From positions 13,578,001 through 13,642,000 of the forward strand of contig NC_135830.1 of assembly GCF_964213995.1 (NCBI RefSeq): a DNA stretch of 64,000 nucleotides, given 5' to 3'. The notes beneath the pieces were generated by a model. That model searched no databases. It was not told the DNA's origin and saw nothing but the letters and a program-made list of their open reading frames with translations. A program made the translations under genes and the position numbers. Source of the DNA: Mustelus asterias. Lineage: Eukaryota. How positions within the stretch are numbered: position 1 is the first letter of the stretch; every line of letters begins with the position of its first letter. Of this stretch, positions 1 to 62,683 are shown in pieces.

Positions 1-47
1 AGAAAGTTGGTGGTTTGTTCCGGCCCCCGTCTATTTTCTTGCGTTAT

Positions 48-390
48 TTGTGGCCTGGGGGGCATCCCCCCTGGATAAAGTCACCCCCGGGGGGTGTGAC
101 ATCCACTTGGGGAAAGTTCTGGGTGGTGAAGCCCCGGACATAGTAACACCAGAGGGATTTTATTCTCCGGGAGAAAAATTGGGAAGGCAGGCCCGAACTG
201 AGTACCCTGGAGAGACTCTCCCACCGCCCCGGCTGAAAATCCGGAACGGATTCCGGATTGAGTAGGTTCGGGGTGGTTTCCCCATTTCCCCCCTCCGGCT
301 GAACATCCGTAAGGTGTAACCCCCGGATATGAGTACCACTGGAGGGTTGCATCCCCCGGCAGGTGGACAAACCCAGGGGACGGTGCCCTT
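48..390 (+). ncRNA. Structured RNA-like module A (also ~1923-2268, ~3792-4137)
   Basis: Nested inverted repeats closed by CCTGGG/CCCAGG; internal GAAA/GAGTA loops. Confidence 0.45.
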
Positions 391-662
391 ATGCTTCAGT
401 GTTTATTTTTTGTTGTGTACAGTTGTAGTGTTGTGTTAATGTTTGTAGATTTGTAGATTATGATTTGTAAATGGAGGTGTATTTTGAGGGCAATGCCCTG
501 GAAAACTGTAATTGATGATGAACCCTTCCGAAATGGAAGGTAGTAATTGATAAATGGATGGTGTTAGCCATCGGTAATGTATTTTTCAGATTTGTTCTTT
601 GTTCATTTGTAATTGTTTTGTAATATCGTGTTTGTACTAACCAACGGAAAATCTTTGCATTG

Positions 663-1012
663 TTTGTGGCCTGGGGGGTATCCCCCCCCCCCCCCCCCCC
701 GGATAGAGTGACCCCCGGGGGGTGTGACATCCAGTTGGGGAAAGTGTCCGGGGCACCCAGAGGGGTAACACCGGGGGGGGTTTTGTTCTCCGGGAGAAAA
801 ATTGGGAAGGCAGGCCGAATTGAGTATCCCGGAGAGCTTTTCCCACCGCCCCAGCCGAAAATCCGGAAGGCAGTCCGGATTGAGTAGGTTCGGGGTGGTT
901 TTCCTGTCCCTCCGCCTCCAGCCGAATATCCGTCAGGTGGAACCCCCGGACCTGAGTACCTCTGGAGGGTTGCATCCCCCGGCAGGGGAAAAACCCAGGA
1001 GGCGGTGCCCTG
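663..1012 (+). ncRNA. Structured RNA-like module B, diverged paralogue of A (also ~2541-2880, ~4408-4757)
   Basis: CTCCGGGA-GAAA...GAGTA-TCCCGGAG (788-834); AGCC-GAAA-ATCCGGA..TCCGGAT-T-GAGTA-GGTT (853-890). Confidence 0.45.
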
Positions 1013-1289
1013 GAGGGCGGCGGATATGCTGCAATGTTTATTCTTGTTATGTTGTACTAATGTTTGTCACTTTGTAGATTATGATTTGTAATTGGAGGTG
1101 TATTGAGAGGGCAATGCCCTGGAAAAATATGACCGTTAGTGAACCCTTCCGAAATAGAAGATAGTAACTGATAAATGGATGGCGTTAGCCATTGGTAATG
1201 TATTTTTTTCACATTTGTTCTTTGTGTATTTGTAACTGTTTTGCATTAACGTATTTGTAATAAACAAAAAGAAACCAACATCTGTGAGT

Positions 1290-1400
1290 GGGAAAGATTG
1301 GATTGTCCAGCCAGTCCACCATATTGGCCGTTCGCTTTGCGTGTTGGCCAGTATAGTGTGCTCCAGGCAGGGGGCGGGCAGAGGATAAGGAGTTCAAGGC
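1290..1400 (+). promoter_or_regulatory. Pol II promoter-like 5' end of array unit (also 3159-3270)
   Basis: ATTGG (reverse CCAAT) twice, GGGGCGGG GC box, then GATAAG; motif-level evidence only. Confidence 0.4.
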
Positions 1401-3143
1401 GGGCTTAATGCGCGCCTTGCGGTGAGCTTTTGGAAATGTGGCCGCTGGGAGGAACGCCTTGGTCGGCGTGAAGTTTCTGTTTCAAGTGCTTGGGTTCGTG
1501 ACTTGTGCAAGAACTTTTTGTTTCGGCTGGGGCTTGTTGAATGCTGCTCTCGCTGGGATTCCTGTGCCTTGAAAGGCGTGGCCCAGGTAGATGCAATCTC
1601 GGAAGACCCAAGCCAGGGAGGAGCCATTTGGGAACTATGGTTTCGGAAGGTTCAGCCGCGGAAGGTGTGACCCCAGACGGTGCAGCCCCAGTGGGTGTGA
1701 TTTTGGAAGTTCTGGCCCGGAGTGGTGGACTTTGGAGGACTGTAGTTGAGCGTTGTCGACTTCGGACGGTGGAATGTTGATGGGCGAAGCTCTGGACGGC
1801 GATGCCTCCGAAATGTTTCACAATTGTATGGTTGTTCATGGATTGTTTGTTATTGTAATATGTGGTTTTCCTGTTATGATAGTTGGTGGTTTGTTCCGGC
1901 CCCCGTCTATTTTCTTGCGTTATTTGTGGCCTGGGGGGCATCCCCCCCTGGATAAAGTCACCCCCGGGGGGGTGTGACATCCACTTGGGGAAAGTTCTGG
2001 GTGGTGAAGCCCCGGACATAGTAACACCAGAGGGATTTCTATTCTCCGGGAGAAAAATTGGGAAGGCAGGCCCGAACTGAGTAACCTGGAGAGACTCTCC
2101 CACCGCCCCGGCTGAAATTCCGGAAGGGATTCCGGATTGAGTAGGCGGGGTGGTTTCCCCCATTTCCCCCCTCCGGCTGAACATCCGTAAGGTGTAACCC
2201 CCGGATATGAGTACCACTGGAGGGTTGCATCCCCCGGCAGGTGGACAAACCCAGGGGACGGTGCCCTTATGCTTCAGTGTTTATTTTTTGTTGTGTACAG
2301 TTGTAGTGTCGTGTTAATGTTTGTAGATTTGTAGATTATGATTTGTAAATGGAGGTGTATTTTGAGGGCAATGCCCTGGAAAACTGTAATTGATGATGAA
2401 CCCTTCCGAAATGGAAGGTAGTAATTGATAAATGGATGGTGTTAGCCATCGGTAATGTATTTTTCAGATTTGTTCTTTGTTCATTTGTAATTGTTTTGTA
2501 ATATCGTGTTTGTGCTAACCAACGGAAAATCTTTGCACTGTTTGTGGCCTGGGGGGTATCCCCCCCCTGGATAGAGTGACCCCCGGGGGGTGTGACATCC
2601 AGTTGGGGAAAGTGTCCGGGGCACCCAGAGGGGTAACACCGGGGGGGTATTGTTCTCCGGGAGAAAAATTGGGAAGGCAGGCCGAATTGAGTATCCCGGA
2701 GAGCTTTTCCCACCGCCCCAGCCGAAAATCCGGAAGGCAGTCCGGATTGAGTAGGTTCGGGGTGGTTTTCCTGTCCCCCCGCCTCCAGTCGAACATCCGT
2801 CAGGTGGAACCCCCGGACCTGAGTACCTCTGGAGGGTTGCATCCCCCGGCAGGGGAAAAACCCAGGGGACGGTGCCCTTATGCTTCAGTGTTTATTTTTT
2901 TGTTGTGTACAGTTGTAGTGTTGTGTTAATGTTTGTAGATTTGTAGATTATGATTTGTAAATGGAGGTGTATTTTGAGGGCAATGCCCTGGAAAACTGTA
3001 ATTGACGATGAACCCTTCCGAAATGGAAGGTAGTAACTGATAAATGGATGGCGTTAGCCATTGGTAATGTATTTTTTTCACATTTGTTCTTTGTGTATTT
3101 GTAACTGTTTTGCATTAACGTATTTGTAATAAACAAAAAGAAA
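1290..3143 (+). mobile_element. Putative non-autonomous retroposon, complete copy
   Basis: Flanked by CCAACATCTGTGAGT (1275-1289, 3144-3158); ends AATAAACAAAAAGAAA; no credible ORF. Confidence 0.6.
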
Positions 3144-3158
3144 CCAACATCTGTGAGT

Positions 3159-5019
3159 GGGAAAGATTGGATTGTCCAGCCAGTCCACCATATTGGCCGT
3201 TCGCTTTGCGTGTTGGCCAGTATAGTGTGCTCCAGGCAGGGGGCGGGCAGAGGATAAGGAGTTCAAGGCGGGCTTAATGCGCGCCTTGCGGTGAGCTTTT
3301 GGAAATGTGGCCGCTGGGAGGAACGCCTTGGTCGGCGTGAAGTTTCTGTTTCAAGTGCTTGGGTTCGTGACTTGTGCAAGAACTTTTTGTTTCGGCTGGG
3401 GCTTGTTGAATGCTGCTCTCGCTGGGATTCCTGTGCCTTGAAAGGCGTGGCCCAGGTAGATGCAATCTCGGAAGACCCAAGCCAGGGAGGAGCCATTTGG
3501 GAACTATGGTTTCGGAAGTTTCAGCCGCGGAAGGTGTGACCCCAGACGGTGCAGCCCCAGTGGGTGTGATTTTGGAAGATCTGGCCCGGAGTGGTGGACT
3601 TTGGAGGACTGTAGTTGAGCGTTGTCGACTTCGGACGGTGGAATGTTGATGGGCGAAGCTCTGGAAGGCGATGCCTCCGAAATGTTTCACAATTGTATGG
3701 TTGTTCATGGATTGTTTGTTATTGTAATATGTGGTTTTCCTGTTAAGAAAGTTGGTGGTTTGTTCCGGCCCCCGTCTATTTTCTTGCGTTATTTGTGGCC
3801 TGGGGGGCATCCCCCCTGGATAAAGTCACCCCCGGGGGGTGTGACATCCACTTGGGGAAAGTTCTGGGTGGTGAAGCCCCGGACATAGTAACACCAGAGG
3901 GATTTTATTCTCCGGGAGAAAAATTGGGAAGGCAGGCCCGAACTGAGTACCCTGGAGAGACTCTCCCACCGCCCCGGCTGAAAATCCGGAACGGATTCCG
4001 GATTGAGTAGGTTCGGGGTGGTTTCCCCATTTCCCCCCTCCGGCTGAACATCCGTAAGGTGTAACCCCCGGATATGAGTACCACTGGAGGGTTGCATCCC
4101 CCGGCAGGTGGACAAACCCAGGGGACGGTGCCCTTATGCTTCAGTGTTTATTTTTTGTTGTGTACAGTTGTAGTGTTGTGTTAATGTTTGTAGATTTGTA
4201 GATTATGATTTGTAAATGGAGGTGTATTTTGAGGGCAATGCCCTGGAAAACTGTAATTGATGATGAACCCTTCCGAAATGGAAGGTAGTAATTGATAAAT
4301 GGATGGTGTTAGCCATCGGTAATGTATTTTTCAGATTTGTTCTTTGTTCATTTGTAATTGTTTTGTAATATCGTGTTTGTACTAACCAACGGAAAATCTT
4401 TGCATTGTTTGTGGCCTGGGGGGTATCCCCCCCCCCCCCCCCCCCGGATAGAGTGACCCCCAGGGGGTGTGACATCCAGTTGGGGAAAGTGTCCGGGGCA
4501 CCCAGAGGGGTAACACCGGGGGGGGTTTTGTTCTCCGGGAGAAAAATTGGGAAGGCAGGCCGAATTGAGTATCCCGGAGAGCTTTTCCCACCGCCCCAGC
4601 CGAAAATCCGGAAGGCAGTCCGGATTGAGTAGGTTCGGGGTGGTTTTCCTGTCCCTCCGCCTCCAGCCGAATATCCGTCAGGTGGAACCCCCGGACCTGA
4701 GTACCTCTGGAGGGTTGCATCCCCCGGCAGGGGAAAAACCCAGGAGGCGGTGCCCTGGAGGGCGGCGGATATGCTGCAATGTTTATTCTTGTTATGTTGT
4801 ACTAATGTTTGTCACTTTGTAGATTATGATTTGTAATTGGAGGTGTATTGAGAGGGCAATGCCCTGGAAAAATATGACCGTTAGTGAACCCTTCCGAAAT
4901 AGAAGATAGTAACTGATAAATGGATGGCGTTAGCCATTGGTAATGTATTTTTTTCACATTTGTTCTTTGTGTATTTGTAATTGTTTTGTATTAACGTATT
5001 TGTGATAAACAAAAAGAAA
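3159..5019 (+). mobile_element. Putative non-autonomous retroposon, last copy of the array
   Basis: Followed by ccaacatcagagagtaaaacactttc, i.e. host sequence paralogous to 46625-46916 (inverted). Confidence 0.6.
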
Positions 5020-5916
5020 CCAACATCAGAGAGTAAAACACTTTCTTTTCTCCCCCTTTCCATTTCTTTTCTCATTCTGGGGGAAATTGGGGACTTGCAG
5101 CAACTGAAGGGAAAGGAAGTGAATCCAGGGAGGCTGCAGACTCTGGAAAGGTTGGCCCAGGTCTCTCTCTCTTAAAGACATTGACATCCTTTGCTCCCTC
5201 AGCTTGACCCATTTATTTGTCTGGCTATAAGGATGGTCTCTTTCCCAATGTTCACAATTAAAGGGCTGGTTTCCCCAGGAGATGGCTGACATTTAAGGGG
5301 ACAGTAAATTAATATAGGACAGAGATATGTCCAGTGTTGTTATGTCAGCCAGGTTTATTCCTGGTCCTGCAATAAATGCATTTATCATTCCAATCTTGTC
5401 ATATTGTACTGTAGCTACATTATATATTTCCAGTTATAGAGTCATTACAGCACAGAAGGAGTCCATTGGACAACTCTAGTCCATGCTGACTCTCACAGTA
5501 ACTTCATAGATTGTTTGCACTTTTTTCATGATTTTCAAGTGACTTCATTGCAGTGTTAATGTAAGCCTCCTTGTGACACTAATTAATAATCAATCAAAAC
5601 TAAACTATAAACCGCCTTGGCGAACACTTACCCGAAGATCAGAGGCTGAATGCCCTTGATCTTCGGGTAAATGTTCTCCAAGGCGGCCTTCAAGACTCAT
5701 GACAGTGCAGAATCGCTGAGCAGAAACTGATAGCCAAGTTCCGCACACATGAGGACGGTCTCAACCAGGATCTTGGGTTCATGTCACACTATCTGTAACC
5801 CCCACAACTTGCTGGGCTTGCGAAATCTCACTAACTGTCCTGGCTTGAGACAATTCAGTAAGAAGTTTAACAACACCAGGTTAAAGTCCAACAGGTTTAT
5901 TTGGTCACAAAAGCCA

Positions 5917-5953
5917 CACAAGCTTTCGGAGCTCTAAGCCCCTTCTTCAGGTG
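5917..5953 (-). ncRNA. Minimal type I hammerhead ribozyme (Penelope)
   Basis: cac-CTGAAGA-a-ggggc(ttaga)gctcc-GAAA-gc-TT-gtg. Confidence 0.75.
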
Positions 5954-6239
5954 AGTGGGAATTCTGTTCACAAACAGGGCATATAAAGACACAGACTCAA
6001 TTTACAGGAATAATGGTTGGAATGTGAATACTTACAACTAATCAAGTCTTTAAGATACAAACAACGTGAGACAATTGAGACAACATTGAGACAATTCACA
6101 CCTCTTTAACCTGTGCTTAACCCTCTCTCCACTCACATTGTACCTGGAAAGACTTGATTACCTGTTAAGACTCGCATTCCAACTATTATAATGGAGTTTG
6201 TGTCTATATATGCCCTGTTTGCGAACCAAATCCTGCACA

Positions 6240-6274
6240 CAGCTGATGAAGGAGCAGTGCTCCGAAAGCTCCTG
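6240..6274 (+). ncRNA. Minimal type I hammerhead ribozyme (Penelope)
   Basis: cag-CTGATGA-a-ggagc(agt)gctcc-GAAA-gc-TC-ctg. Confidence 0.8.
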
Positions 6275-6371
6275 CTACTAATAAACCTGTTGGACTTTAA
6301 CCTGGTGTTGTGAAACTTCTTACTTAGACTGGGTGTCTACCCCAGTCCAACGCCGACATCTTCACATCCAG

Positions 6372-11982: not shown

Positions 11983-12338
11983 GTGACATGGTGGCACAGT
12001 GGTTAGCACTGCTGCCTCACAGCGCCAGGGACCCATTTAATTCCAGCCTTGGGTGAATGTCTGTGTGGAGTTCGCATGTTCTCCCTGTGTCTGCGTGGGC
12101 TTCCTCCGGGTGCTCCAGTTTCCACCCACAGACCAAAGATGCCCAGGTTCAGTGGATTTGCAATGTTGAATTCCCTCTTCGTCTCCCAAGCTGTGTGGGT
12201 TAGATAGGTTAGCCATGGTAAATGTGTGAGATTACAGAGATAGGGCAGGGGAGAGGGCCTGGGTAAGGTGCTCTGTTAGAGAGATGGTGCAGACTCGATG
12301 GTCCGAATGGTCCCTTCTGCACTGGAGGTATTCTATGA
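11983..12338 (+). mobile_element. HE1-type SINE
   Basis: tRNA-like head, CR1-like tail ending ttctatgatt. Confidence 0.85.
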
Positions 12339-12771
12339 TTCAATGAACACAGGAATGGTCAGAATTATTTCACATGTCCCAAATTTTAAATAACCATTAC
12401 AATTAAAACTCTCTCATACTCACATGTGTGAGTTTGAATCCGGATTAAAATTCCCACATGTTTAGCAAAGTATCCTGGAATCATGTCTCTGGCCAGTAAA
12501 TGTGGCTCTAGGTTCACAACTTTTGTGAAAAAAAGCTTTATTAATTACACGTCCTTGATTTAAATCTGTTTGACATGTGAGTATGAGAGAGTTTTAATTG
12601 TAATGGTTATTTAAAATTTGGGACATGTGAAATAATTCTGACCATTCCTGTGTTCATTGAATCATAGAATCCCTCCAGTGCAGAAGGGACCATTCGGACC
12701 ATCGAGTCTGCACCATCTCTCTAACAGAGCACCTTACCCAGGCCCTCTCCCCTGCCCTATCCCTGTAATCT
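12229..12771. repeat. Local inverted duplication, ~200-bp arms (12229-12427 / 12573-12771)
   Basis: Near-perfect reverse complement covering the SINE tail and unique flank. Confidence 0.9.
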
Positions 12772-19294: not shown

Positions 19295-21185
19295 GGTTAG
19301 CAAGTTTGCAGACGATACTAAATTAGGAGGAATCGCTGATAGTGAAGAAGGTTATCAAAAATTACAGGGGGATCTTGATCAGTTGTTTGGTTAGGAAAGT
19401 GGGCCAATGATTGGCAAATGGATTTCAGTACAGATAATACAGAGTACAGAGGCACAACCTCAGGCTATAGGGACGATCCTTGAAAACAGAGATAAGGAGG
19501 AATTTCTTCAGCCAGAGAGTGGTGAATTTGTGGAACTCTTTGCCGCAGAAGGCTGTGGAGGCCAGGTCATTGACTGTCTTTAAGACAGAGATATATAGGT
19601 TCTTGATTAATAAGGAGATCTGGGGTTATGGGAAAAAGGCAGGAAAATGGGGATGAGAAAAATATCAGCCATGATTGAAGGGCGGAGCAAACTCGATGGG
19701 CCGAGTGGCCTATTTCTGCTCCTATCTCTTATGGTCTTAAGTGTGAGTGTTGCATTTTGGAAAGTCAAACCAGGGTAGGACTTGTACAGTGAATGGTAAG
19801 GCACTGGGGAGTGTTGAGGAACAGAGGAACACAGGAATACAAGTACATAGTTCATTGAAAGTGGCGGCACAGGTAAACAGAGTGGTGAAGAAGGCATTTA
19901 GCACACTGGCCTTCATCAGTCAGGGCACTGAGTATAGGAGTTGGGACATTATGTTATAGTTGTATAAGTCATTGGTGAGGCTGCACTTGGAGTACTGTGT
20001 ACAGTTTTTGTAACCCTGTTACAGGAAAGACATTGATAAACTGGAAAGAGTGCAAAGAAGATTTATGAGGATGTTGCCGGGACTAATGGGCCTGAATGAT
20101 CGTGTGAGGTTGGATAGGCTAGGGCTTTATTCCTTTGAATGTAGGAGAATGTGGGGTGACTATATTGAGGTGTATTAAATCATGAGGGGCATAGATAGGA
20201 TGAACCCACATTGTCTTTTTGCCAGGGTAAGAGAATTGAAAACTAGAGGGCATGGGTTTAAGATGAGAGGGGAAAGATTAAAAGGAACCTGAGGGGCAAC
20301 TTCTTCATGCAAAGGGTGGTGTGTACATGGAATGAGCTGCCAGAGAAAATGGTTGAGGCAGGTTCAAACAGCAGGTTTAAACATTTTTAAAAGCATTTGG
20401 ATAATTACATGAATTGGAAAGGATTATAAGACCATAAGACCATAAGACATAGGAGCGGAAGTAAGGCCATTCGGCCCATCGAGTCCACTCCACCATTCAA
20501 TCATGGTTGATTTCAACTCCATTTACCCGCTCTCTCCCCATAGCCCTTAATTCCTCGAGAAATCAAGAATTTATCAATTTCTGTCTTGAAGACGCTCAAC
20601 GTCTCGGCCTCCACAGCCCTCTGTGGCAATGAATTCCACAGACCCACCACTCTCTGGCTGAAGAAATTTCTCCTCATCTCTGTTCTAAAGTGACTCCCTT
20701 TTATTCTAAGGCTGTGCCCCCGCGTCCTAGTCTCCCCTGTTAATGGAAACAACTTCCCTACGTCCATCCTATCTAAGCCGTTCATTATCTTGTAAGTTTC
20801 TATCAGATCTCCCCTCAACCTCCTAAACTCCAATGAATATAATCCCACGATCCTCAGACGTTCATCGTATGTCAGGCCTACCATTCCTGGGATCATCCGT
20901 GTGAATCTCCGCTGGACCCGCTCCAGTGCCAGTATGTCCTTCCTGAGGTGTGGGGCCCAAAATTGCTCACAGTACTCCAAATGGGGCCTAACCAGTGCTT
21001 TATAAAGCCTCAGAAGTACATCCCTGCTTTTGTATTCCAAGCCTCTTGAGATAAATGACAACATTACATTAGAGGGATATGAGCCAAACATGGACAACTG
21101 GGACTAGCTGGGAGGGCACCATGGTTGGCATGGATCAGTTGGGCCCAAGGGCCAGTTTCCGTGCTATATTGCTCTATGACTCTAT
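19295..21185. mobile_element. Old CR1 (+) with nested CR1 pieces (~19448-19740 +; young copy 20430-21069 -)
   Basis: KFADDTK at ~19302; nested tails; ORF 20513-21097 matches 39270-40145. Confidence 0.85.
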
Positions 21186-24305: not shown

Positions 24306-24910
24306 CACAGGGAGCTGAAAATCTCCATGCAGGCTGCCAGACAGATGTCTATAATACTGGATAAAAGTGTAATATACAGGACATTATTTGAATAGTGACA
24401 GAGCAGGGATTTGAGGAAGATTTATACTTGGGTAGGGAGAGCACATGATCTGGAACTCGCTGCCTAAAAGGATGGTGGAACAGAAGATGAATGGGAAATA
24501 CATCTCATGATATAGTGGGATCTGGAAAGCAGAATTTATTTCCCTTTCCAAAAGAGAAAATGCTGGAAAATCTCTGCAGGTCTGGCAGCATCTGTGAGGA
24601 GAGAAAAGAGCTGACATTGAGGCCGGATGACCCTTTGTCAAAGCTATTTCCCTTTCTTTCCTTCTCTGCCACCGCTCTGCCTCATCAATAAGACATTGGG
24701 ACTCAGAGGGTTGATGCAGTTTGATGGACAAGTTGTCTCCATTCTGAACAATGGGGAACAAGCTCCTCCCACTCAATGACAACATTGCCCCCTAAAAGGA
24801 TGACGGCTGCGCATGCGCCTTCTTGCATATTGCCCCCAATAAAGATGGCGGCCGTGAGCGCGGCCCGAACATGAGGAGCTGCGGTACCGCTCGGTACAAA
24901 CTGGGTCCGT

Positions 24911-25573
24911 TGGAGGTCCCTCTACGGAGGGATCTCCCCCAATTACGTCGGGGACCTGGGGTGGAGGGTGATGCATGCAGCAGTTCCGCACAACCGTAGG
25001 ATTCACTGGTTCACGGGCTCCGAAGACTGCCCTTTCTGCGGCCTTGTGGAGTCCATGGACTATGTCTATGTTGAGTGTCTTAGGCTGCACTCCCTTTATG
25101 TTTTCCTAAAGAGCCTTTTGTTGATGTTTTGTCTGCATTTCAGTCCCACGCTCCTGATCTACGGACACCTGGTGCGGAGAGGGGAGGGTCGGGATGGCGA
25201 CCTCCTTGTGAACCTGCTCCTGGGCCTGGCGAAACGCGCCATTTACTGGTCCAGGCTGCGGGCGATCGAGGGGGCCGTCCATCCTGACTGTCTTCCCCTC
25301 TACCGCAGCTACGTTCACGGCCAGGTGTCCCTGGAGAGGGAGCATGCGGTGTCCACGGGCGAGGTTGACGCTTTCCGCGCCCGCTGGGCACCGCAGGGGT
25401 TGGGGTGCATTATTGACCCTAATAATCACATTTTAATTTGATGTTTTTAAGTTTCCTTTGTACTTTGATTTCTGTTCGGGCTGTTCCCCCTCCTTTTTGG
25501 GGAGCTGCCCCTTTTACTTTGTCCTGAATTAATCTGAGTTTGTTTACTTGGTTTGGTTTGACCTAAAAAGAGG
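24911..25573 (+). mobile_element. Tx1 (L1 clade) 5'-truncated copy with 15-bp TSD
   Basis: ORF2 C-terminus CPFCGLVES; TSD ACAAACTGGGTCCGT at 24896-24910 and 25574-25588; empty site near 60201. Confidence 0.9.
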
Positions 25574-25739
25574 ACAAACTGGGTCCGTGAAGCTCTTTAC
25601 CGAGGTTCACGGCTGACACAACCTGCTTACGCAGCGTTTCCGTCCACCCGCGAGATCCCTCGCCCCCTCCGTACCGTCAATCACCGCTAACCTATCTCCG
25701 AGCCGAAAAAACAGCCCCGTCTCCGTCGCCATTACCCAC

Positions 25740-25914: not shown

Positions 25915-26091
25915 CAGAGTCTCAGTGTTACAATGACACACACAGGCTCCAATACAATCAGAGTGGGGATGGAGCACAGAGACAACACAGCAAAGCACTG
26001 ACTTACTCTCAGTGTAACAATGACACACACAGGCTCCAATACAATCAGAGTGGAGATGGAGCACAGAGACAACACAGCAAAGCACTGACTT
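25915..26091. repeat. 87-bp minisatellite, 2 copies
   Basis: Unit starts at 25924 and 26011. Confidence 0.9.
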
Positions 26092-39181: not shown

Positions 39182-40127
39182 CATAAGACCATAAGACCAT
39201 AAGACATAGGAGCGGAAGTAAGGCCATTCGGCCCATCGAGTCCACTCCACCATTCAATCATGGTTGATTTCAACTCCATTTACCCGCTCTCTCCCCATAG
39301 CCCTTAATTCCTCGAGAAATCAAGAATTTATCAATTTCTGTCTTGAAGACGCTCAACGTCTCGGCCTCCACAGCCCTCTGTGGCAATGAATTCCACAGAC
39401 CCACCACTCTCTGGCTGAAGAAATTTCTCCTCATCTCTGTTCTAAAGTGACTCCCTTTTATTCTAAGGCTGTGCCCCCGCGTCCTAGTCTCCCCTGTTAA
39501 TGGAAACAACTTCCCTACGTCCATCCTATCTAAGCCGTTCATTATCTTGTAAGTTTCTATCAGATCTCCCCTCAACCTCCTAAACTCCAATGAATATAAT
39601 CCCACGATCCTCAGACGTTCATCGTATGTCAGGCCTACCATTCCTGGGATCATCCGTGTGAATCTCCGCTGGACCCGCTCCAGTGCCAGTATGTCCTTCC
39701 TGAGGTGTGGGGCCCAAAATTGCTCACAGTACTCCAAATGGGGCCTAACCAGTGCTTTATAAAGCCTCAGAAGTACATCCCTGCTTTTGTATTCCAAGCC
39801 TCTTGAGATAAATGACAACATTACATTTGCTTTCCTAATTACGGACTCAACCTGCAAGTTTACCTTTAGAGAATCCTGGACTAGGACTCCCAAGTCCCTT
39901 TGCACTTTAGCATTATGAATTTTGTCACCGTTTAGAAAATAGTCCATGCCTCTATTCTTTTTTCCAAAGTGTACGACCTCGCACTTGCCCACGTTGAATT
40001 TCATCAGCCACTTCTTGGACCACTCTCCTAAACTGTCTAAATCTTTCTGCAGCCTCCCCACCTCCTCAATACTACCTGCCCCTCCACCTATCTTTGTATC
40101 ATCGGCAAACTTGGCCAGAATGCTCCC
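39182..40127 (-). mobile_element. Young CR1 3' fragment, open RT frame
   Basis: ORF 39270-40145; (ACCATAAG)n tail; shared part appears identical to 20430-21069. Confidence 0.92.
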
Positions 40128-42135
40128 ATGACCGTGGTGCACCAAAAAAGTTTCTTTGTTGGTTAAAAAGAAAAAGGAGGCTTATGTTCGGATGAGACGT
40201 GAGCACTCGGGTAGTGCACTAGAAAGCTTTAGATTGGCTAAGAGGGAGTTGAAGAGCGAGCTTAGAAGGGCTAAAAGGGGACATGAGAAGACTTTGGCGG
40301 ATAGGGTTAAAGAGAATCCTAAGGCGTTCTATAGGTATGTCAAGAACAGAAGGTTGGTTAGGGCAAGTTTAGGGCCAGTTATAGATGGCAGAGGGAAGTT
40401 ATGTGTGGAACCGGAGGAGATTGGTGAAGCATTGAACCAATATTTCTCTTCGGTGTTCACGCAAGGGGACATGAATATAGCTGAGGAGGACACTGGGTTG
40501 CAAGGGAGTAGAATAGACAGTATTACAGTTGATAAGGAGGATGTGCAGGATATTCTGGAGGGTCTGAAAATAGATAAATCCCCTGGTCCGGATGGGATTT
40601 ATCCAAGGATTCTCTGGGAGGCAAGAGAAGTGATTGCAGAGCCTCTGGCTCTGATCTTCAGGTCGTCGTTGGCCTCTGGTATAGTACCAGAAGATTGGAG
40701 GTTAGCGAATGTTGTCCCATTGTTTAAGAAGGGGAACAGAGACTTCCCCGGGAATTATAGACCGGTGAGTCTCACTTCTGTTGTCGGCAAGATGTTGGAA
40801 AAAATTATAAGGGATAGGATTTATAGTTATTTGGAGAGTAATGAATTGATAGGTGATAGTCAGCATGGTTTTGTGGCAGGTAGGTCGTGCCTTACTAACC
40901 TTATTGAGTTTTTTGAGAAAGTGACCAAGGAGGTGGATGGGGGCAAGGCAGTGGACGTGGTATATATGGATTTTAGTAAGGCGTTTGATAAGGTTCACCA
41001 TGGTAGGCTTCTGCAGAAAATGCAGATGTATGGGATTGGGGGTGATCTAGGAAATTGGATCAGGAATTGGCTAGCGGATAGGAAACAGAGGGTGGTGGTT
41101 GATAGTAAATATTCATCATGGAGTGCGGTTACAAGTGGTGTACCTCAGGGATCTGTTTTGGGGCCACTGCTGTTTGTAATATTTATTAATGATCTGGATG
41201 AGGGTATAGTTGGGTGGATTAGCAAATTTGCTGATGACACCAAAGTCGGTGGTGTGGTAGACAGTGAGGAAGGGTGTCGTAGTTTGCAGGAAGACTTAGA
41301 CAGGTTGCAAAGTTGGGCCGAGAGGTGGCGGATGGAGTTTAACGCGGAGAAGTGTGAGGTAATTCACTTTGGTAGGAATAACAGATGTGTTGAGTATAGG
41401 GCTAACGGGAGGACTTTGAATAGTGTGGAGGAGCAGAGGGATCTAGGTGTATGTGTGCATAGATCCCTGAAAGTTGGGAATCAAGTAGATAAGGTTGTTA
41501 AGAAGGCATATGGTGTCTTGGCGTTTATTGGTAGGGGGATTGAATTTAGGAGTCGTAGCGTTATGTTGCAACTGTACACAACTCTGGTGCGGCCGCACTT
41601 GGAGTACTGTGTGCAGTTCTGGTCCCCACATTACAGGAAGGATGTGGAGGCTTTGGAGAGGGTGCAGAGGAGGTTTACCAGGATGTTGCCTGGTATGGAG
41701 GGGAGATCCTATGAGGAGAGGCTGAGGGATTTGGGATTGTTTTCGCTGGAAAGGCGGCGGCTAAGAGGGGATCTTATTGAAACATATAAGATGATTAGAG
41801 GTTTAGATAGGGTGGATAGTGATAGCCTTTTTCCTCTGATGGAGAAATCCAGCACGAGGGGGCATGGCTTTAAATTGAGGGGGGGTAGTTATAGAACCGA
41901 TGTCAGGGGTAGGTTCTTTACCCAGAGGGTGGTGAGGGATTGGAATGCCCTGCCAGCATCAGTAGTAAATGCGCCTAGTTTGGGGGCGTTTAAGAGATCC
42001 GTAGATAGGTTCATGGACGAAAAGAAATTGGTTTAGGTTGGAGGGTCACAGTTTTTTTTTTTTTTTAACTGGTCGGTGCAACATCGTGGGCCGAAGGGCC
42101 TGTTCTGCGCTGTAATGTTCTATGTTCTATGTTCT
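40128..42135 (+). mobile_element. Young 5'-truncated CR1, 626-codon open RT domain
   Basis: NYRPVSLTS, QHGF, DFSKAFD, GVPQGSVLGP, FADD; (ATGTTCT)n tail; no endonuclease. Confidence 0.95.
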
Positions 42136-46172: not shown

Positions 46173-46916
46173 AAAGATTCACGACCAGGTCATTAAGAAC
46201 TTCATTGAGGTGCTGAGTGTTCACAAACACAAACTCGCTGTTTATGAGAATGGTGGAATTAGAGATGATCCAAGATTTCAAACTGAACTGGCTGGACATT
46301 GGAGGAAATAATCTTGTGAGATACAGGGGTACAGAGGGAGAATGGGACTGACTAGATTGCTCTACAGAGGGTCAGCACGGACTCGAATGGACATATTCTG
46401 TGCTGTAATGGATCAATGACTGGAAAGGTATGTCACGACAGTGCTATATTACAAACTTGAAATAACAATAAATGAAATTTATCACAGAACCATAAATAAT
46501 ATATCTAATATGCATCTAATAGCAAAATTAGACATAACTCTGTCCCACATAAAATTACTGCCCCACAAAGAATCATAAATTTACACCAGATTACACCAAA
46601 CATACCCATATCTGTCATACCTTATTACATTGTCCCCTTAAATGTCAACCATCTCCTGGGGAAACCAGCCTTTAATTGTGAACATTGGGAAAGATGCCAC
46701 CGTTTTAGCCAGACAAATAAATGTGTGAAGCTGAGGGAGTTAAAGAATGTCAATATCTTTAAGAGAGAGAGAGACCTGGGCCAACCTTTCCAGAGTCTGC
46801 AGCCTCCCTGGATTCACTTCCTTTCCCTTCAGTTGCTGCAAGTCCCCAATTTCCCCCAGAATGAGAAAAGAAATGGAAAGGGGGAGAAAAGAAAGTGTTT
46901 TACTCACAGATGTTGG

Positions 46917-47182
46917 CCTCTTTTAAGGTCAAACCAAATAAACAAACTCAAGTTAAGTCAGGACAAAGTAAAAGGGGCAGCTCCCCAAAAGGAGGGGGAA
47001 CAGCCCGAACAAAAATCAAAGTACAAAGGAAACTTAAAAACATCAAATTAAAATGTGATTATTAGGGTTGATAACGCACCCCAACCCCTGCGGTGCCCAG
47101 CGGGCGCGGAAGGTGTCAACTGCGCCCGTGGACACCGCATGCTCCCTCTCCAGGGACACCCGGCCGCGAACGTAGCCGCGGT
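46917..47182 (-). mobile_element. Tx1 3' end
   Basis: Homologous to 25310-25573; abuts ACTCACAGATGTTGG (46902-46916). Confidence 0.9.
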
Positions 47183-48123
47183 TGTGGCGACAGATGGAAG
47201 TTTCAGTCGGTCTGAAACTCAAACCTCATTATCACAAAGCGCGCGCTCTGGTTGGCTGGATGACCAGCGGCCTTTTGGTCCTCCAAGCCCTTCCATTGGT
47301 CAACACCTCAGCAGGGTTCAGAAACATTTCTGCATGTGCGCAGATTGATCCCTTGGACATGCGCAGATTCGAGCCGCCCGGTTGATAGAGCGACTTCCCC
47401 AACGCGGGGCATTGTGGGCGATGCAGCCGCCATTACTGTACCAGACCACAGTCTCCAAACTCCTGGGATTGGGATAAAAGGTGGCGGTGGCAGTGACTGC
47501 ACCCTGACACAAGGCACAAGTGGGTAGTCACAAGCTTATATATTGACGCCTACTTAGCAAAACAGTTCACCTTCAGGCATATAGATTGACATTTTTGGGT
47601 AACAAACTAGGGAGGGCAAGAGGTAGGCTGAAATTTAAACTGAGAATTAGCACATAAAGCGGAGAAGAATTGATTTGATTCATTATTGTCACACGTATTA
47701 GGATAGTGAAAAGTATTGTTTCTTGCACGCTATACTGACAACACCATTCAGAGTACATAGGGAGAAGGAAAGGAGAGGGTGCAGAACGTAATGTTACAGT
47801 CATTGCTGGGGTTTTGAGAAAGATTAATTTAATGTCTGGTAGGTCCATTCAAAAATCTGATGGCAGCAGGGAAGGGAATTGAAAAAAAAAGCAGGAGGAA
47901 TAGAAAAGGATGAATTAGTGGATGAATCAACAGAGAGGAAGGTGTGTGTGAGGGGACAGAGATTTATAGTTTGGGTGGGAGAAACATGCCTAATGATAAC
48001 CAGAATTGTCAGTTCTGAATTTTTATCCTGTACTGACAGTGATGACTTGATAACTTCAACCCTGTCGCATCCATTCATAATCTCGATCAGGTCAGCACTC
48101 AGCCTTGGCTTTTCCAGAGAATA

Positions 48124-56011: not shown

Positions 56012-57051
56012 GGTGCAGGTGTCCTTGCCTCTCTCTTGGGTGGACAATCAGTTGAAGCCTTGTCCACACACAGAACACGACTACGGTCGCTCCCTGCTGT
56101 GAATGGTGTGATATTTATTCAGACTGTGTAACTGGTTAAAGCTCTTTAGTCAGTGCATTGGAACACTCTCACTCGAGTGTGGCAGTGTGTTGGTGTTTTT
56201 CACACTGATGTTTGAAATTTTTTCAAATTGACAGACTGGCCAAACATTTCTCCTTCTGGATTCAAAGGCCGATGATATTCAGCTCCCAAGGAATATGACT
56301 CTGTCAGATCTAGACGTGACGTTTGAGATTTCGGTCTGTGATTCCTCTTTCAATATCCTGTAAAACGAGTTTACAAAAGTCATCAGTGTCAGGACAGGAT
56401 ATAAATTCAGAACAGACAATCCTAGTTTCTATGGAACATTCTTTCCTCTCTCATTCCCCAAAAGCTGTAAATCTCCGTTCCACACACTCTCCCTCCATTC
56501 TCACTCTGCTGTATCTAATATTCACCCTCCCAATTCTCCTGAAGGTGCTGATTGAGGCTGATTGACAGATCCATGCTCACTGCTTCCTGTCCACCACACA
56601 CAAATCATAAGAAACAGGAGCTGCAGTTGGCCATTCAGCCCATCGATTGAGAATTAGCTGATCTACCTCAGCACTATTTCTCGCACTATCCCCCAGGTTG
56701 CTCAATGCCTCAAAAGTTATCAATCTCTCTCTTGAAAATACTTGATGGCTGAGGCTCCACAGTCCTCTGGGATGCAGAATTCAAACATTTCACCACATCC
56801 TTGAGTGAGGAAATCCCTTCTCATCTTAACTTTCACTCCATTTTCCCACTGTTCTCCGTAATGCTTGACTCCTTTATCAATGTAAAATCTGTCTTACTCA
56901 TCCTCGAATATATTCAATAACCCTCAGCTTCCATTGATCCCTGTGGAAGACAAATCCAAAGACCAGTGACTCGAATAAGCACGAGATGAATGACTGAAAA
57001 TATATAATTGACATGATTGACAGATCCATGCTCACTGCTTCTTTTCCTGGA

Positions 57052-57558
57052 CAGTAAGAAGTCTCACAACACCAGGTTAAAATCCAACAGGTTTATTTGG
57101 TAGCAAACGCCACGAGCTTTCGGAGCGCTGCCCCTTCATCAGGTGAGTGGGAGTTGTGTTCACAAACAGGGCATATATAGACACAAACTCAATTTACAAG
57201 ATAATGGTTGGAATGCGAGTCTTTACAGGTAATCAAGTCTTAAAGGAACAGACAATGTGAGTGGAGAGAGGGTGAAGCACAGGTTAAAGAGATGTGTATT
57301 GTCTCCAGCCAGGACAGTTAGTGAGATTTTGCAAGCCCAGGCAAGTCGTGGGGGTTCATGTAAATATTTATTTTGTAAATTGAGTTTGTGTCTATATATG
57401 CCCTGTTTGTGAACACAACTTCCACTCACCTGACGAAGGAGCAGCGCTTCGAAAGCTAGTGGTGTTTGCTACCAAATAAACTTGTTGGACTTTAACCTGG
57501 TGTTGTGAGACTTCTTACTGTGTTCACCCCAGTCCAACGCCGGCATCTCCACATCATC
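57052..57558. mobile_element. Penelope pseudo-LTR inverted pair with two hammerheads (57111-57145 -, 57427-57461 +)
   Basis: ~150-bp inverted arms; tttcctggac on both sides; cac-CTGA(T/C)GA...GAAA-gc-T(C/A)-gtg. Confidence 0.85.
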
Positions 57559-57807
57559 CTTTCCTGGACACAGAGAGCTGAAAATCTTCCATCTCACAGC
57601 CACGTGAAAGTTTTACATTTGGACATAAATGAGCAGCCTGATGATGTGTGTAATACACTGCATGACCTGGTTACAGATTCATGAAGAATGTGAGGAGAAC
57701 TTTTATTTAGGCAGCGAGTGGTGAACTGGAAGTTATAAATTGAATCCCAGAATGAGAAAAGAAATGGAAAGGGGGATAAAAGAAAGTGTTTTACTCACAG
57801 ATGTTGG

Positions 57808-59436
57808 CCTCTTTTAAGGGCAAACCAAACAAACAAACTCAAGTTAAATCAGGACAAAGTAAAAGGGGCAGCTCCCCAAAAGGAGGGGGAGAACAGCCCG
57901 AACAAAAATCAAAGTACAAAGGAAACTTAAAAACATCAAATCATAATGTGATTGTCAGGGTCGATAATGCACCCCAACCCCTGCGGTGCCCAGCGGGCGC
58001 GGAAAGCGTCAACCTCGCCCGTGGACACCGCATGCTCCCTCTCCAGGGACACCTGGCCGCGAACGTAGCCGCGGTAGAGGGGCAGACAGTCAGGATGGAC
58101 GGCCCCCTCGATCGCCCGCTGCCTGGACCGGTAAATGGCGCGTTTCGCCAGGCCCAGGAGCAGGTTCACGAGGAGGTCGCCATCCCGACCCGACCCTCTC
58201 CACACCGGGTGTCCGTATATCAGGAGCGTGGGACTGAAGTGCAAACAAAACATCAATAAAAGGTTCTTTAAGAAAACATAAAGGGAGTGCAGCCTAAGAC
58301 ACAAAATATAGACATGGTCCACGGACTCCACAAGGCCACAGAAAGGGCAGTCTTCGGAGCCCGTGAACCAGTGAATCCTACGGTTGTGCGGAACTGCTGC
58401 ATGCATCACCCTCCACCCCAGGTCCCCGACGTAATTGGGGGAGATCCCTCCGTAGAGGGACCTCCAGCGGGGACCTCCGCCGCCCGGCGGCAACAAGGCC
58501 CGCCAAGGTGTATCCAGGCGACAGGCGAGGAGGCGGTAGTGGAAGGTGTGCAGCAGCAGCCCGCACAGGAAACGCCTCCGCGTGGTAGAAAAAGGCACGG
58601 AGGACATTTCCGCGAGGCGGCTCAGGCTGTGGGGCACCTCACCCGAGGAGGGGGGCTGAGGCTTTGGGCCAATGTGGAATTCCGCCCAAACAGGGGAACG
58701 CTCGGGCGGGATCCCACCGCACGCCTGCGTCGCATCGAGTTTGCGTGCAGTTTCGGGGCCGAGCACGACCGTCCTAAGGTCTAGGATGGCTTTGGTCGCG
58801 CGCCGGACGGTCGTCCCCGCGCGCTCAGCCAGCACGCGGGGACTCATCCAGCCTGCCCCTCCGCCATCGAGCACGTCCCCGATCCTGGTCACCCTGGCGT
58901 CCACAGCCCTCCTCTCCGCCAGCCACCTGAAGTCATACGGCTGGAGGAGCGGATTCCTGAGCAGCGGCTCTCGCACGAGAGCCGCTACTCCTGACGGGGG
59001 GGAGCTGCGTCACGAGGCGACCGTGTTCCAGACAGTGAGGAGGTCCTGGTAAAAGACGGGCAACTCCTGCAGGGCGGTCGAAGCACGCCCCAATTCGATA
59101 TGCAGGAGCTGCACATCATAATTGAGGCCGTGCCACTGGCGGAAGAAATACGTCGCCATGGCACACCACTGTGGAGGGGACTCAACGTAAAGGTACCTCT
59201 GCAGGGCCTGGAGGCGGAAGGTCGCTATCTGAGTGCGGAGGCACACCAGACCTTGTCCGCCCTCCTCAAGCGGGAGATGCAGAACCGCAGCAGGGACTCA
59301 GTGTAGTCGATTGCCCCAGAAGAACCGCAGGAGGGTTCTCTGGATATCGGCGACAAAGCCAGGAGGAGGGGTCAAAGGGACCAGCCGATACCACAGCATG
59401 GAGGCGACCAGCTGGTTTATGACGCGAACCCGCCCC
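57808..59436 (-). mobile_element. Tx1 (L1 clade) ORF2 3' part, decayed
   Basis: ORF 57936-58976 with CPFCGLVESVDH; upstream INQLVASMLWY...LPLEEGGQGL; abuts ACTCACAGATGTTGG (57793-57807). Confidence 0.9.
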
Positions 59437-59959
59437 TGTGAATGGTCACAAACACTCACCTCTGAAACAATTTAACTGATTTTAATATTAAAATCTCCTG
59501 CGAGAGCCTGCATCTGGATAGATATCAGAAGCATTGGCTTCAGAGAAAAATCTCCCAGTTGAGGAAATCCCCGGGGAGTGGGGGTGATGTCACTGTGCAA
59601 TTGTAAGTAATTGTAAGAATACCTGGGTCTGTGCAAACCAGTGATCACCACACACATTATGGAGGATGTGAGGCTCCTTGACAGGGTGCAGAGGAGATTT
59701 ATCAAAATGGTTCCAGAGATGAGGAATTATAGTTACAATGTTAGGCTGGATAACTTGGGGTTGTTCTCCTTGGAGCAAAGTAGATTGATTGAGGTGTACA
59801 AGGGTACATGGAGGTGTCAAGGTTTTCATGCTCTGTTTACACGTGTACAAGCTCTGACTCTGGGTCATCCAGTCTCAAAACGTTGGTTCTATTCTCTCTC
59901 CACAGATGCTGTCAGATCTGCTGAGATTTTCCAGCATTTACTGTTTTACTTTCCCTTTC

Positions 59960-60890
59960 TTTTTCCTTCTCTGTCACTGCTCTGTCTCATCAATAAGACA
60001 TTGGGACTCAGAGGGTTGATGCAGTTTGATGGACAAGTTGTCTCCATTCTGAACACTGGGGAACAAGCTCCTCCCACTGATTGACAACATTGCCCTCTAC
60101 AAACATGGCGGCCGCACGTGCGCACTGCTGCATATTGCCCCCAATAAAGATGGCGAACGTTAACCCGGGACGAACATGAGGAGCTGCAGCCCTGCTCGGT
60201 ACAAACTGGGTCCGGGAAGTTCTCTTCCGCGGTTTGCGGCTTACACAACATGCTTACGCAGCGTTTCCACCCACCTGGGCGATCCATTGCTCTCTCCGTA
60301 CCGCTAATCACCGCTAACAGATTTCCGAGCCCAAAACAAAAGCCGTTTCCCATCGCCATTACTCACACTGCGCATGCTCCAGTCAAAGCTGGCCCCGCCC
60401 CTCATTCGCTCCTATTGCTTGGAGGACCGACCGCTCCCGATCGGTCCTCCAGCACTACCCCCTCTTCCCATTGGTCCGCGCAGCTGTCAATCAGCCGGGC
60501 ATTGTGACGGTGACTTGCTGCTTGTCCAATAATAACAGTTACAGAGTCTGAGTGTAACAATGACACACACAGGCTCCAATCCAATCAGAGTGGGGATGGA
60601 GCACAGAGACAACACAGCAAAGCACTGACTTACTCTGAGTGTAACAATGACACACACAGGCTCCAATACAATCAGAGTGGGGATGGAGCACAGAGACAAC
60701 ACAGCAAAGCACTGACTTACTCGAGTGTAACAATGACACACACAGGCTCCAATACAATCAGAGTGGGGATGGAACACAGAGACAACACAGCAAAGCACTG
60801 ACTTACTCTGAGTGTAACAAATACAACGTTTGTTCAAATAATAAGAGTCATGTTGCAGTATGTTAGTGAACACAGCATTGGATCCAATGT
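59960..60890. repeat. Segmental duplication of ~24655-26090 (promoter unit, without Tx1), including 87-bp minisatellite x3+ at 60549-60820
   Basis: Colinear similarity; unit starts 60551, 60638, 60724, 60811. Confidence 0.88.
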
Positions 60891-62551: not shown

Positions 62552-62683
62552 GGAGGAGGGGGGGGCGGGCCCATTTGGAACCCTGGTGGGGAGGGTGGGA
62601 TGAGGAGAGGGAGTGGGATGAGGAGAGGCCCACGTCGCCCTCTTGGGCGGGGGGGGGGGGGGGGGCTGGTGGGAGTGGAGGCG

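Follow-up and report, generated by a model that had tools for sequence, protein, structure and literature searches.

A tandem array of a 1.87-kb, apparently non-coding retroposon-like unit at a Tx1-associated site in zinc-finger gene DNA of Mustelus asterias

Main finding

At the left edge of the window, which is the whole 64,000-nucleotide stretch of Mustelus asterias DNA analysed here, at least three units follow one another head to tail at 1..5034, with periods of 1869 and 1876 bp and a 15-mer in each junction. That this tandem array exists is plain from the sequence. With a probability of about 0.45, we read the unit as a non-coding retroposon inserted by a Tx1-type LINE through target-primed reverse transcription (TPRT), which would have entered the same place twice and then been expanded by recombination.

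Layout of the array and host flank

The tandem units of about 1.87 kb with a junction 15-mer had been described in the first-pass annotation, and this description was confirmed. The array runs on leftward past the window start and unit 1 is only partly contained in the window, while unit 3 begins at 3159 with a head, U, and closes at 5019 with a subrepeat, B. The features are as follows:

1..1274, + strand: incomplete unit 1, with subrepeats A and B; 1-1289 against 3746-5034, 99.5% identity
1275..1289, + strand: junction 15-mer, putative target-site duplication (TSD); exact match
1290..3143, + strand: unit 2, 1854 bp, differing from unit 3 by 17 substitutions in the first ~1570 bp
3144..3158, + strand: junction 15-mer, putative TSD; exact match
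5020..5034, + strand: terminal 15-mer with two changes; the host flank starts here
5020..5326, + strand: host flank on the upstream side of a ZNF gene; its paralogue is 46916-46608, with 148/150 first bases identical

The units are closed by AATAAACAAAAAGAAA, with AATAAA at 1259 and 3128 and GATAAA at 5004; on both strands of the window, 1259 and 3128 are the only AATAAA sites with at least seven A in the next 10 bases. A poly(A) signal and an A-rich 3' tail, which is short (10 bases) and interrupted, are thus present without LTR or TIR. No second locus of the unit was found in bases 5035-64000 by BLASTN or nhmmer.

Past 5034, the sequence is collinear with a ZNF paralogue at 46916-43325, where C2H2 domains are found, in line with the earlier statement that host ZNF-cluster DNA follows the last copy. 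The 15-mer equals the first 15 bases of a host flank that is present at two other places, and the unit diverges exactly at base 16; the host-derived 15-mer fills each of the two junctions and also closes the array on its right, the left end lying beyond the window. It includes GTGAGT, a candidate splice donor. The exact 15-mer also occurs at 46902-46916 and 57793-57807 (both − strand), and at up to two mismatches the window holds five matches against 0.22 expected, a count reached in 0 of 100 shuffles. The junction is of host origin, is 15 bp long and has its position in common with Tx1. Its host derivation, the divergence at base 16 and a length equal to that of a Tx1 TSD support the earlier proposal that the 15-mer is a target duplication, and it appears to behave as one. 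The host flank was also considered as a DNA transposon and rejected, as there is no long terminal inverted repeat round the 46916 site and only one 14-nt pair.

Tx1-type copies in the window

The neighbouring LINE copies, which we take to be Tx1 from their motifs, are listed below. Among four long relatives of the local LINE that were scanned, RVT_1 was detected in 4/4 and Exo_endo_phos in 3/4, and zf-RVT was detected in 3/4 below its curated cut-off.

24896..25588, + strand: Tx1-type 3' fragment 24911-25573 between the two copies of an exact 15-bp TSD (24896-24910 and 25574-25588)
46902..47182, − strand: 266-bp Tx1-type 3' fragment (46917-47182), then the 15-mer; without upstream TSD
57746..59438, − strand: Tx1-type 3' fragment 57808-59438 (about 1630 bp) and a 62-bp stretch of the host flank; without upstream 15-mer

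It was confirmed that the 15-mers at 46902-46916 and 57793-57807 directly follow Tx1 3' ends in the same orientation: AAAAGAGG, the tail of the same non-LTR family, stands immediately before both minus-strand 15-mers in the same relative orientation. The unit therefore shares insertion site and orientation with the Tx1 family, on the basis of one array and possibly one Tx1 event. An upstream 15-mer was sought at both of these Tx1 copies and was absent at both. The 57746..59438 block is bounded by an ATTCA direct repeat (59443-59439 and 57745-57741; chance 0.0024 per position), and the 57793 Tx1 may have carried the 62-bp flank in as a passenger; ATTCA is the one observation behind this reading, because the empty-site (paralogue-continuation) test at 57793 gave no significant improvement on random joins (580/5000). 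Since upstream TSDs are missing and the flank is a possible passenger, the copies at 46902 and 57793 may be one event and not independent insertions. The earlier claim that Tx1 uses the 15-mer site holds in that two 3' ends adjoin it, but its force is reduced by the lack of an upstream 15-mer, which weakens their independence.

For the 24911-25573 copy, the previously noted 15-bp TSD proved exact and non-extendable, and an empty paralogous site at 60201 has a single copy of it (14/15 bases). The two Tx1 targets, both in ZNF-cluster DNA (three Tx1 copies in the window), have only 8 of 15 bases in common and do not support strict Tx1 target specificity; PMC4494074 calls a family target-specific when a single target type flanks more than 20% of its copies. 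All Tx1 copies of the window (3/3) are 5'-truncated (266, 663 and about 1630 bp), and truncation is therefore the norm; the 3'UTR of the local Tx1 family measures 128 bp. It has been reported that the whale shark appears to be without full LINE1 and that both the whale shark and Callorhinchus have Tx1 (PMC8455134).

Internal structure of the unit

Judged from its alignments, the unit is composite: a unique head is followed by three nested T-rich tail copies, of which only the last has the terminal AATAAA.

3159..3776, + strand: unique head U of unit 3; no homologue found
3507..3685, + strand: six degenerate ~30-bp repeats in U; periodicity reached in 0/500 shuffles
3602..3741, + strand: third T-rich tail copy, the most diverged, homologous to 4244-4383
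3777..4395, + strand: subrepeat A, a GC-rich part plus a T-rich tail, with ACTAAC at the position of the terminal AATAAA
4396..5019, + strand: subrepeat B, ~80% identical to A (BLAST)

A and B align with 512 matches, 75 mismatches and 65 gap columns, and B ends with the poly(A)-signal position followed by the A-rich tail. The third tail copy scores 201 against 4244-4383, compared with 116 ± 16 in block shuffles (0/300), and its match to subrepeat B is weaker (18/300 block shuffles); ~590 bp of U lie upstream of even the oldest tail end. The T content of the T-rich tail is 39–42%, and non-mammalian L1 3'UTRs are likewise T-rich (PMC5381506). The codon-phase bias of the 30-bp repeats in U was not significant (3787/10000). 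The A/B duplication and the third tail copy, together with the lack of an upstream TSD at 46902 and at 57793 and the edge effect described below, go beyond the first-pass annotation.

Coding capacity, RNA and homology

A Pfam search of 13 ORFs (four within the array) and of the six frames of unit 3 gave no family for the unit, and its longest open frame is ordinary, being reached in 98 of 1000 shuffles. An ORF2 C-terminus was not found in the 1.85-kb unit with a 344-node profile (best E 0.67), which picks up a 40-residue Tx1 remnant at E 4e-9; such a C-terminus could nevertheless lie upstream of a truncation point. By eye, U seemed at its start to resemble the Tx1 ORF2 end, but neither the profile search nor DNA shuffles upheld this likeness. 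In word-based protein searches, 0/59 candidates were significant for a 183-aa minus frame and 0/245 for a 79-aa plus frame; these negatives are weak because the same search gave 0/7998 for a true Tx1 fragment, missing its relatives. The Atlas search of the unit, likewise a weak negative, gave no usable match (best score 0.79), and phage records held no match to it. The tests run thus support a non-coding unit with no detectable coding remnant, the database negatives being weak.

Rfam gave no match at gathering score anywhere in the window, whether ribozyme, snRNA or rRNA, and 8/8 matches of unit 3 were far below cut-off; ARAGORN found no tRNA in the window. The unit has no small-RNA-derived (SINE) head, and each of its segments contains 4–6 runs of four or more T. 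A folding scan of 60 windows gave no strong structure (lowest z −3.3, four others below −2), and no terminal inverted repeat was present among 22 inverted pairs. The 3' end of the unit shares nothing beyond AAAAGA with the local Tx1 3' end, 174 and 191 of 300 shuffles scoring as well; in this comparison, confined to the local Tx1, the 3' homology to a partner LINE that marks a stringent pair or bipartite element was not found. The earlier suggestion of a protein-less element mobilised by Tx1 accordingly keeps its non-coding character, by the tests run, and its shared site, but finds no 3' sequence in common with the local Tx1. No description of the element was found in the literature searched, a scope that leaves most subscription journals and Repbase Reports outside.

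Recombination within the array

Units 1 and 3 have 6 differences in 1289 bases, five of which lie in the last 62 bp, two of these in the terminal 15-mer, leaving a single difference in the first 1227 bases; this clustering at the edge has a P of 1.5e-6 for an interval chosen after seeing the data. Unit 2 is ~1% different from units 1 and 3, which have a long poly-C run and a B type in common that are absent from unit 2, and it contains one further mark:

2867..3030, + strand: A-type tract within subrepeat B of unit 2, an unbroken run of A-type diagnostic columns

This tract may have arisen by gene conversion or out-of-register exchange. Recombination, and not serial insertion alone, appears to have shaped the array, because the edge effect and the converted tract go beyond what repeated insertion alone would give; the earlier choice between repeated insertion and amplification is narrowed in the same direction. 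Identical putative TSDs in the junctions and signs of unequal exchange, the two marks of an R1-type TE-derived array, are both present.

Proposed origin and alternatives

In the origin that we propose, the template for TPRT would have been an RNA whose end is formed by the distal AATAAA and the A-rich tail, a Tx1-type LINE supplying the endonuclease and reverse transcriptase. A nick at a favoured position within the 5' region of the ZNF paralogue and a staggered second cut would give the 15-bp duplication; a second copy could enter the same place because the duplication leaves the target intact, yielding a dimer with the TSD in its junction. Unequal exchange and gene conversion would then have enlarged and homogenised the array, the latest expansion step being a 3745-bp two-unit block. 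Earlier, the element would have lengthened by duplicating its own 3' end twice. As there is no RNA-gene head, transcription probably starts at a Pol II promoter within U or reaches the unit by read-through out of the adjoining DNA. We infer the insertion via RNA, the mobilising enzyme, the double insertion, the completeness of the element and the promoter from these features. The proposal is favoured by the unit 3' end lying at the same nucleotide and in the same orientation as the Tx1 3' end in the paralogue, by a host-derived junction as long as the verified Tx1 TSD, by the confinement of AATAAA plus an A-rich stretch to unit ends, by the T-rich tail and the lack of an ORF2 C-terminus, by the edge effect and the converted tract, and by the SINEU-3 and R1 precedents. 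Against the proposal stand the single locus, with no dispersed copy among bases 5035-64000; the Tx1 evidence at the site, possibly one event, and the limited likeness of the two Tx1 targets; and the lack of a 3' sequence common to unit and local Tx1, together with truncation as the norm for the Tx1 copies of the window; and the position of the left end and its upstream TSD beyond the window, the weakness of the negative protein searches and the absence of a strong RNA structure.

It is quite possible that the unit is instead only the 3' part of a longer coding element whose 3'UTR is long and internally duplicated. Such an element could belong to a different Tx1 family or be HAL1-like with ORF1 only; one of its copies, truncated, would have inserted behind an earlier one, and unequal exchange would have multiplied the truncated junction. 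Such an origin would agree with the 5' truncation of every Tx1 copy in the window, homogenisation can spread one truncation point to all units, and the 30-bp repeat in U might descend from a protein repeat of 10 residues that has since decayed; the L1 clade includes ORF1-only elements (PMC5786205), and Drosophila non-LTR tandem junctions are mostly a tail joined to a truncated 5' end (10.1101/158386). It is countered by 1.85 kb without an ORF2 C-terminus against a local 3'UTR of 128 bp, by the length of U ahead of the oldest tail end, and by the non-significant codon-phase test and ordinary longest frame. An improbable alternative denies that the 15-mer is a TSD: an element would already have been present, and a tandem duplication at the DNA level, one of its breakpoints falling 15 bp inside the host flank, would have created the repeat unit. 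Rearrangement of DNA is frequent in this region, where 62 bp of flank may have travelled with the 57793 copy, and the upstream TSD of the array lies outside the window, but the breakpoint must then equal the local Tx1 TSD length by chance, and the 3' junction shared with Tx1 still requires retro-insertion.

Very improbable is a unit of another class (LTR/TRIM, DNA transposon, Helitron, satellite or rDNA spacer) with an accidental retroposon look. A and B are direct repeats of LTR size, but they adjoin and do not flank an internal region as two LTRs would, and there is no R/U5 because AATAAA sits 10 bases from the end; the absence of a terminal inverted repeat, of rRNA and of any other Rfam match in the window, and a junction made of local host DNA, argue in the same sense. 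That every unit is an independent full-length insertion with no later amplification is the least credible reading, largely refuted by the edge effect, barring assembly errors. Kojima reads SINEU-3 tandems as sequential insertion (PMC4494074), and the ~1% distance of unit 2 would suit such a history; however, if unit 3 had inserted recently, the 15-mers to its left and right should be identical, whereas 2 of 15 bases differ, against 1 in 1227 between units 1 and 3, and the poly-C run and B type link these two units to the exclusion of unit 2.

Comparison with known systems

Like SINEU-3 and SINEU-1, the unit is non-coding and shares insertion sites with Tx1, and in both cases internal T runs argue against Pol III (PMC4494074). 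Crocodilian SINEU-3 tandems sandwich a TSD, of 16 bp compared with 15 in the unit, and were attributed to Tx1-Mar by their shared target; no LINE was found with the SINEU-1 3' end, and Tx1-Mar used two dissimilar sites in one target (PMC4494074). SINEU differs in its length (<500 bp against 1.85 kb) and target (Mariner-N4 against ZNF-gene DNA) (PMC4494074). Unlike SINEU, the unit has no U1/U2 snRNA head, and unlike SINEU-3, its array is expanded and homogenised and it is known from one locus.

The Drosophila R1 array has identical 33-nt junction duplications; here, as in TE dimers and in the unit, non-LTR units are parted by identical target duplications, and double insertion followed by unequal exchange was invoked as we propose for the unit (10.1101/158386). 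R1 is coding and strictly rDNA-specific, with an array of 0.5–1.3 Mb, whereas the unit is ORF-less and lies in a ZNF paralogue (10.1101/158386). Bipartite non-autonomous LINEs and HAL1 resemble the proposed element in being Pol II-type and moved by LINE proteins, but ORF-less bipartite LINEs are given only for RTE, Ingi, Vingi and R2, and HAL1 encodes ORF1 (PMC5786205); neither end of the unit could be assigned to a parent LINE. SVA and Sadhu resemble the proposed element in being long (0.9–2 kb), non-coding, LINE-mobilised and outside the SINE definition, and SVA is composite as is the unit, a likeness by description, but both are dispersed families and the unit is so far a single tandem locus (PMC4494074).

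Significance

The conversion of a mobile element into a tandem repeat by recombination is a known route, and the element could not be named here; the array offers a clean vertebrate case, in which the junction contains the TSD and homogenisation can be seen. A wider reading, which we consider rather unlikely, is a long (1.85 kb), ORF-less, Pol II-type family trans-mobilised by Tx1, in which both partners prefer the 5' regions of the multicopy C2H2 zinc-finger genes and the element lengthens by renewed duplication of its 3' tail and gives rise to satellite-like arrays in ZNF clusters. If such a dispersed, ORF-less, ZNF 5'-tied family exists, the Tx1 clade would gain a long non-autonomous partner, a protein-coding gene family would stand beside small-RNA genes, microsatellites and transposons as a Tx1 target class, and the family would allow a direct test of whether an insertion site without a common tail suffices to identify the mobilising LINE.

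Structure and Growth of the Array

A head-to-tail array, a real feature of retroposon-like character, occupies bases 1–5034 of the window with its right end. As the first-pass annotation had claimed, it consists of tandem units of about 1.87 kb joined by a 15-mer, which is confirmed by self-BLAST (99.5% identity of 1–1289 with 3746–5034, and 94.5% of 2–3158 with 1878–5034), by periods of 1869 and 1876 bp, and by the 15-mer matches in the window (5 against 0.22 expected; 0/100 shuffles). The features concerned are as follows:

1275 and 3144: exact 15-mer at unit junctions
5020: terminal 15-mer, with two mismatches
46902 (−) and 57793 (−): exact 15-mer adjoining Tx1 copies
3159–5019: unit 3, the last unit
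46917–47182 (−): Tx1 copy, 5′-truncated
57808–59438 (−): Tx1 copy, 5′-truncated
24911–25573 (+): Tx1 copy, 5′-truncated

The units end in AATAAA (GATAAA in the last) followed by ten A-rich bases, and AATAAA with the A-rich end occurs nowhere else in the window besides two unit ends. Past 5034, the right flank is collinear with a paralogous zinc-finger (ZNF) locus at 46916–43325, and C2H2 domains are found in the ORF downstream of the array. The host segment beginning with the 15-mer is identical at 148 of 150 positions between 5020 and 46916, while divergence from the host begins at base 16 in the unit junctions. The proposal that the 15-mer is a target-site duplication (TSD) gains from this host origin, from the departure at base 16, and from a verified Tx1 TSD also of 15 bp; a Tx1-type TSD is the best reading of the junction, although the duplication expected upstream, at the array's left end, falls outside the window. 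The 15-mer at 1275–1289, 3144–3158, and 46902–46916 ends in the splice-donor consensus GTGAGT, a candidate donor, which at the 46916 locus lies downstream of promoter-like DNA; the terminal 15-mer at 5020 lacks it, and the window as a whole contains 47 instances of GTGAGT.

Over 1289 positions, units 1 and 3 show six differences (4462, 4981, 4989, 5004, 5028, and 5030), five of them within the last 62 bases and two inside the terminal 15-mer; the P of 1.5e-6 for this edge clustering applies to a 62-base window picked after seeing the data. As a fresh insertion would give identical 15-mers flanking unit 3, homogenisation has acted on the interior, leaving private changes at the edge. Between units 2 and 3 there are 17 substitutions over ~1570 bp, and subrepeat B of unit 2 carries A-type sequence at 2867–3030. 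Because unit 1 matches unit 3 and not unit 2, the sequence points to recent duplication of a 3745-bp block. Of the two origins first proposed, repeated insertion or later amplification, amplification is favoured by the block duplication, conversion, and edge effect, and insertion alone is opposed by the differing 15-mers around unit 3. Assembly error is a possible influence on copy number.

Anatomy and Coding Capacity of the Unit

Each unit comprises a head, U (~620 bp), followed by subrepeats A and B, which lie side by side, measure ~615 bp each (80% BLAST identity), and both have a GC-rich part and then a tail with 39–42% T. The end of U (3602–3741) is a third copy of this tail (0/300 shuffles against A, 18/300 against B), older than those of A and B. 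Terminal AATAAA is found in B only, the equivalent place in A being ACTAAC, and the element probably duplicated its own 3′ end twice, retaining the distal signal. Since the 15-mer is absent between A and B, these duplications would predate insertion at this locus. Inside U lie six degenerate 30-bp repeats (0/500 shuffles), whose codon-phase pattern is non-significant. Near the start of U, A-box-like and B-box-like motifs ~50 bp apart were seen by eye at 3212–3271; T runs shortly after them count against Pol III transcribing the unit in full. A 15-base stretch common to B and the palindrome described below (63451–63437) is probably chance.

The unit was described as protein-less, and this held: across 12 frames from units 2 and 3, a Tx1 ORF2 C-terminus profile reached a best E of 0.67, yet it recovered each Tx1 copy in the window, including one with only 40 residues (E 4e-9); Pfam gave no match in six frames of unit 3; and 98 of 1000 shuffles reached the 183 codons of the longest open frame within U. 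Rfam and ARAGORN gave no matches, and no 3′ sequence common to the unit and local Tx1 was found. Protein and Atlas searches with the unit were also blank, a weak test since the word-based tool missed real Tx1 relatives. Thus, these searches found no apparent origin from coding sequence or an RNA gene.

Neighbouring Tx1-Type Copies and Other Repeats

The LINE family, presumably Tx1 from its motifs, has 332 protein relatives (E no higher than 0.001); four of these were scanned, and RT, endonuclease, and zinc-knuckle domains occur among them. The copy at 24911–25573 has the clear TSD ascribed to it, an exact 15-bp duplication extendable on neither side with a single copy at paralogous site 60201. 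This target and the array 15-mer, the two known Tx1 targets, have only 8/15 bases in common, which limits the family to target preference at most. It is telling that the unit and Tx1, two unrelated sequences in matching orientation, both end at one particular nucleotide in paralogous DNA. The suggested sharing of one 15-bp site stands for position and orientation, but the support from Tx1 is thinner than first supposed, as a second, upstream 15-mer is absent at both copies adjoining the 15-mer. The last 266 bases of the three Tx1 copies are all 94.3–95.1% identical pairwise, so identity does not separate duplication from independent insertion. The flank common to 57793 and the other locus ends after 62 bp, and ATTCA both directly before Tx1 and directly after this flank suggests that the flank arrived as a passenger with Tx1; a paralogous-intron test of this reading was non-significant (580/5000). 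At 47182–47189, the short Tx1 copy has a 3-base overlap (ACC) at its 5′ junction, which could mark a deletion that took the upstream TSD or else a 2-bp duplication; this junction also predicts which host sequence should adjoin the array on its left.

Other repeats were also observed. At 62645–63537, two inverted arrays of a ~40-bp repeat (TGACGTC core) flank a ~150-bp centre, forming a large imperfect palindrome within GC-rich DNA. A fold-back element at 12229–12771 (199-bp arms, 99% complementary, spaced 145 bp) is a candidate MITE or inverted duplication of a SINE fragment. An inverted pair of a short repeat (5857–6324 and 57051–57521; near-perfect 45-bp outer arms) has more copies at 26189, 30912, and 33255; inside it, near 6243–6267, a CTGATGA...GAAA motif, which we take to resemble Penelope-type minimal hammerheads, received no Rfam score. 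An 87-bp tandem repeat at 25920–26091 (2.0 units) and 60547–60820 (3.2 units), its copies 97% identical, adjoins paralogous promoter-like ZNF regions. RT-type LINE fragments at 39270–40181 and 20513–21103 have identical last ~185 translated residues, probably a very recent insertion or duplication. A near-perfect 35-bp hairpin lies at a repeat fragment's edge (5612–5686), and CR1-type repeats are present, in keeping with the chondrichthyan source assumed in the first-pass annotation.

Proposed History and Comparison with Known Systems

In the most likely history (probability roughly 0.78), Tx1-type target-primed reverse transcription would have inserted the element, creating the 15-bp TSD; another insertion would have followed at the target, kept intact; and unequal exchange and conversion would then have shaped the array. 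Within it, the unit is perhaps a complete non-autonomous element, at slightly under even odds; that it represents the 3′ portion of some longer element, cut short on insertion, is somewhat less probable, and the two are hard to tell apart. Truncation is seen in all three Tx1 copies of the window and recombination could multiply one truncated junction; a complete element is favoured by the lack of an ORF2 end in the unit's 1.85 kb, against a 128-bp 3′UTR in local Tx1.

In the cited passages, SINEU-3 tandems enclose a 16-bp TSD, compared with 15 bp here, Tx1-Mar, with two dissimilar preferred sites, is inferred as mobiliser from common targets, and transcription from flanks is possible for SINEU elements; the supplements give crocodilian Tx1 targets and TSDs, which may bear on TSD length (PMC4494074). 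Double insertion, then unequal exchange, has been argued for the R1 array, whose 33-nt duplications at the junctions are identical (10.1101/158386); identical TSDs common to LINE and LTR copies in satellite arrays were read as one integration copied via host recombination (10.64898/2026.09.17.752431). The relevant section of PMC5786205 names ORF-less bipartite LINEs for RTE, Ingi, Vingi, and R2 only, and T-rich, repeated 3′UTRs terminating in AATAAA are described in part of PMC5381506. In the whale shark, full LINE1 is apparently missing, and Tx1 is present there and in Callorhinchus, according to the portion cited (PMC8455134). No description of this unit was found in the literature searched, and it may already be held in Dfam, Repbase, or eukaryotic genome collections as an unclassified repeat. 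The process is already known; the element has no name and comes from one locus. If the unit were a dispersed, ORF-less Tx1 partner favouring ZNF 5′ regions, it would be of greater interest.
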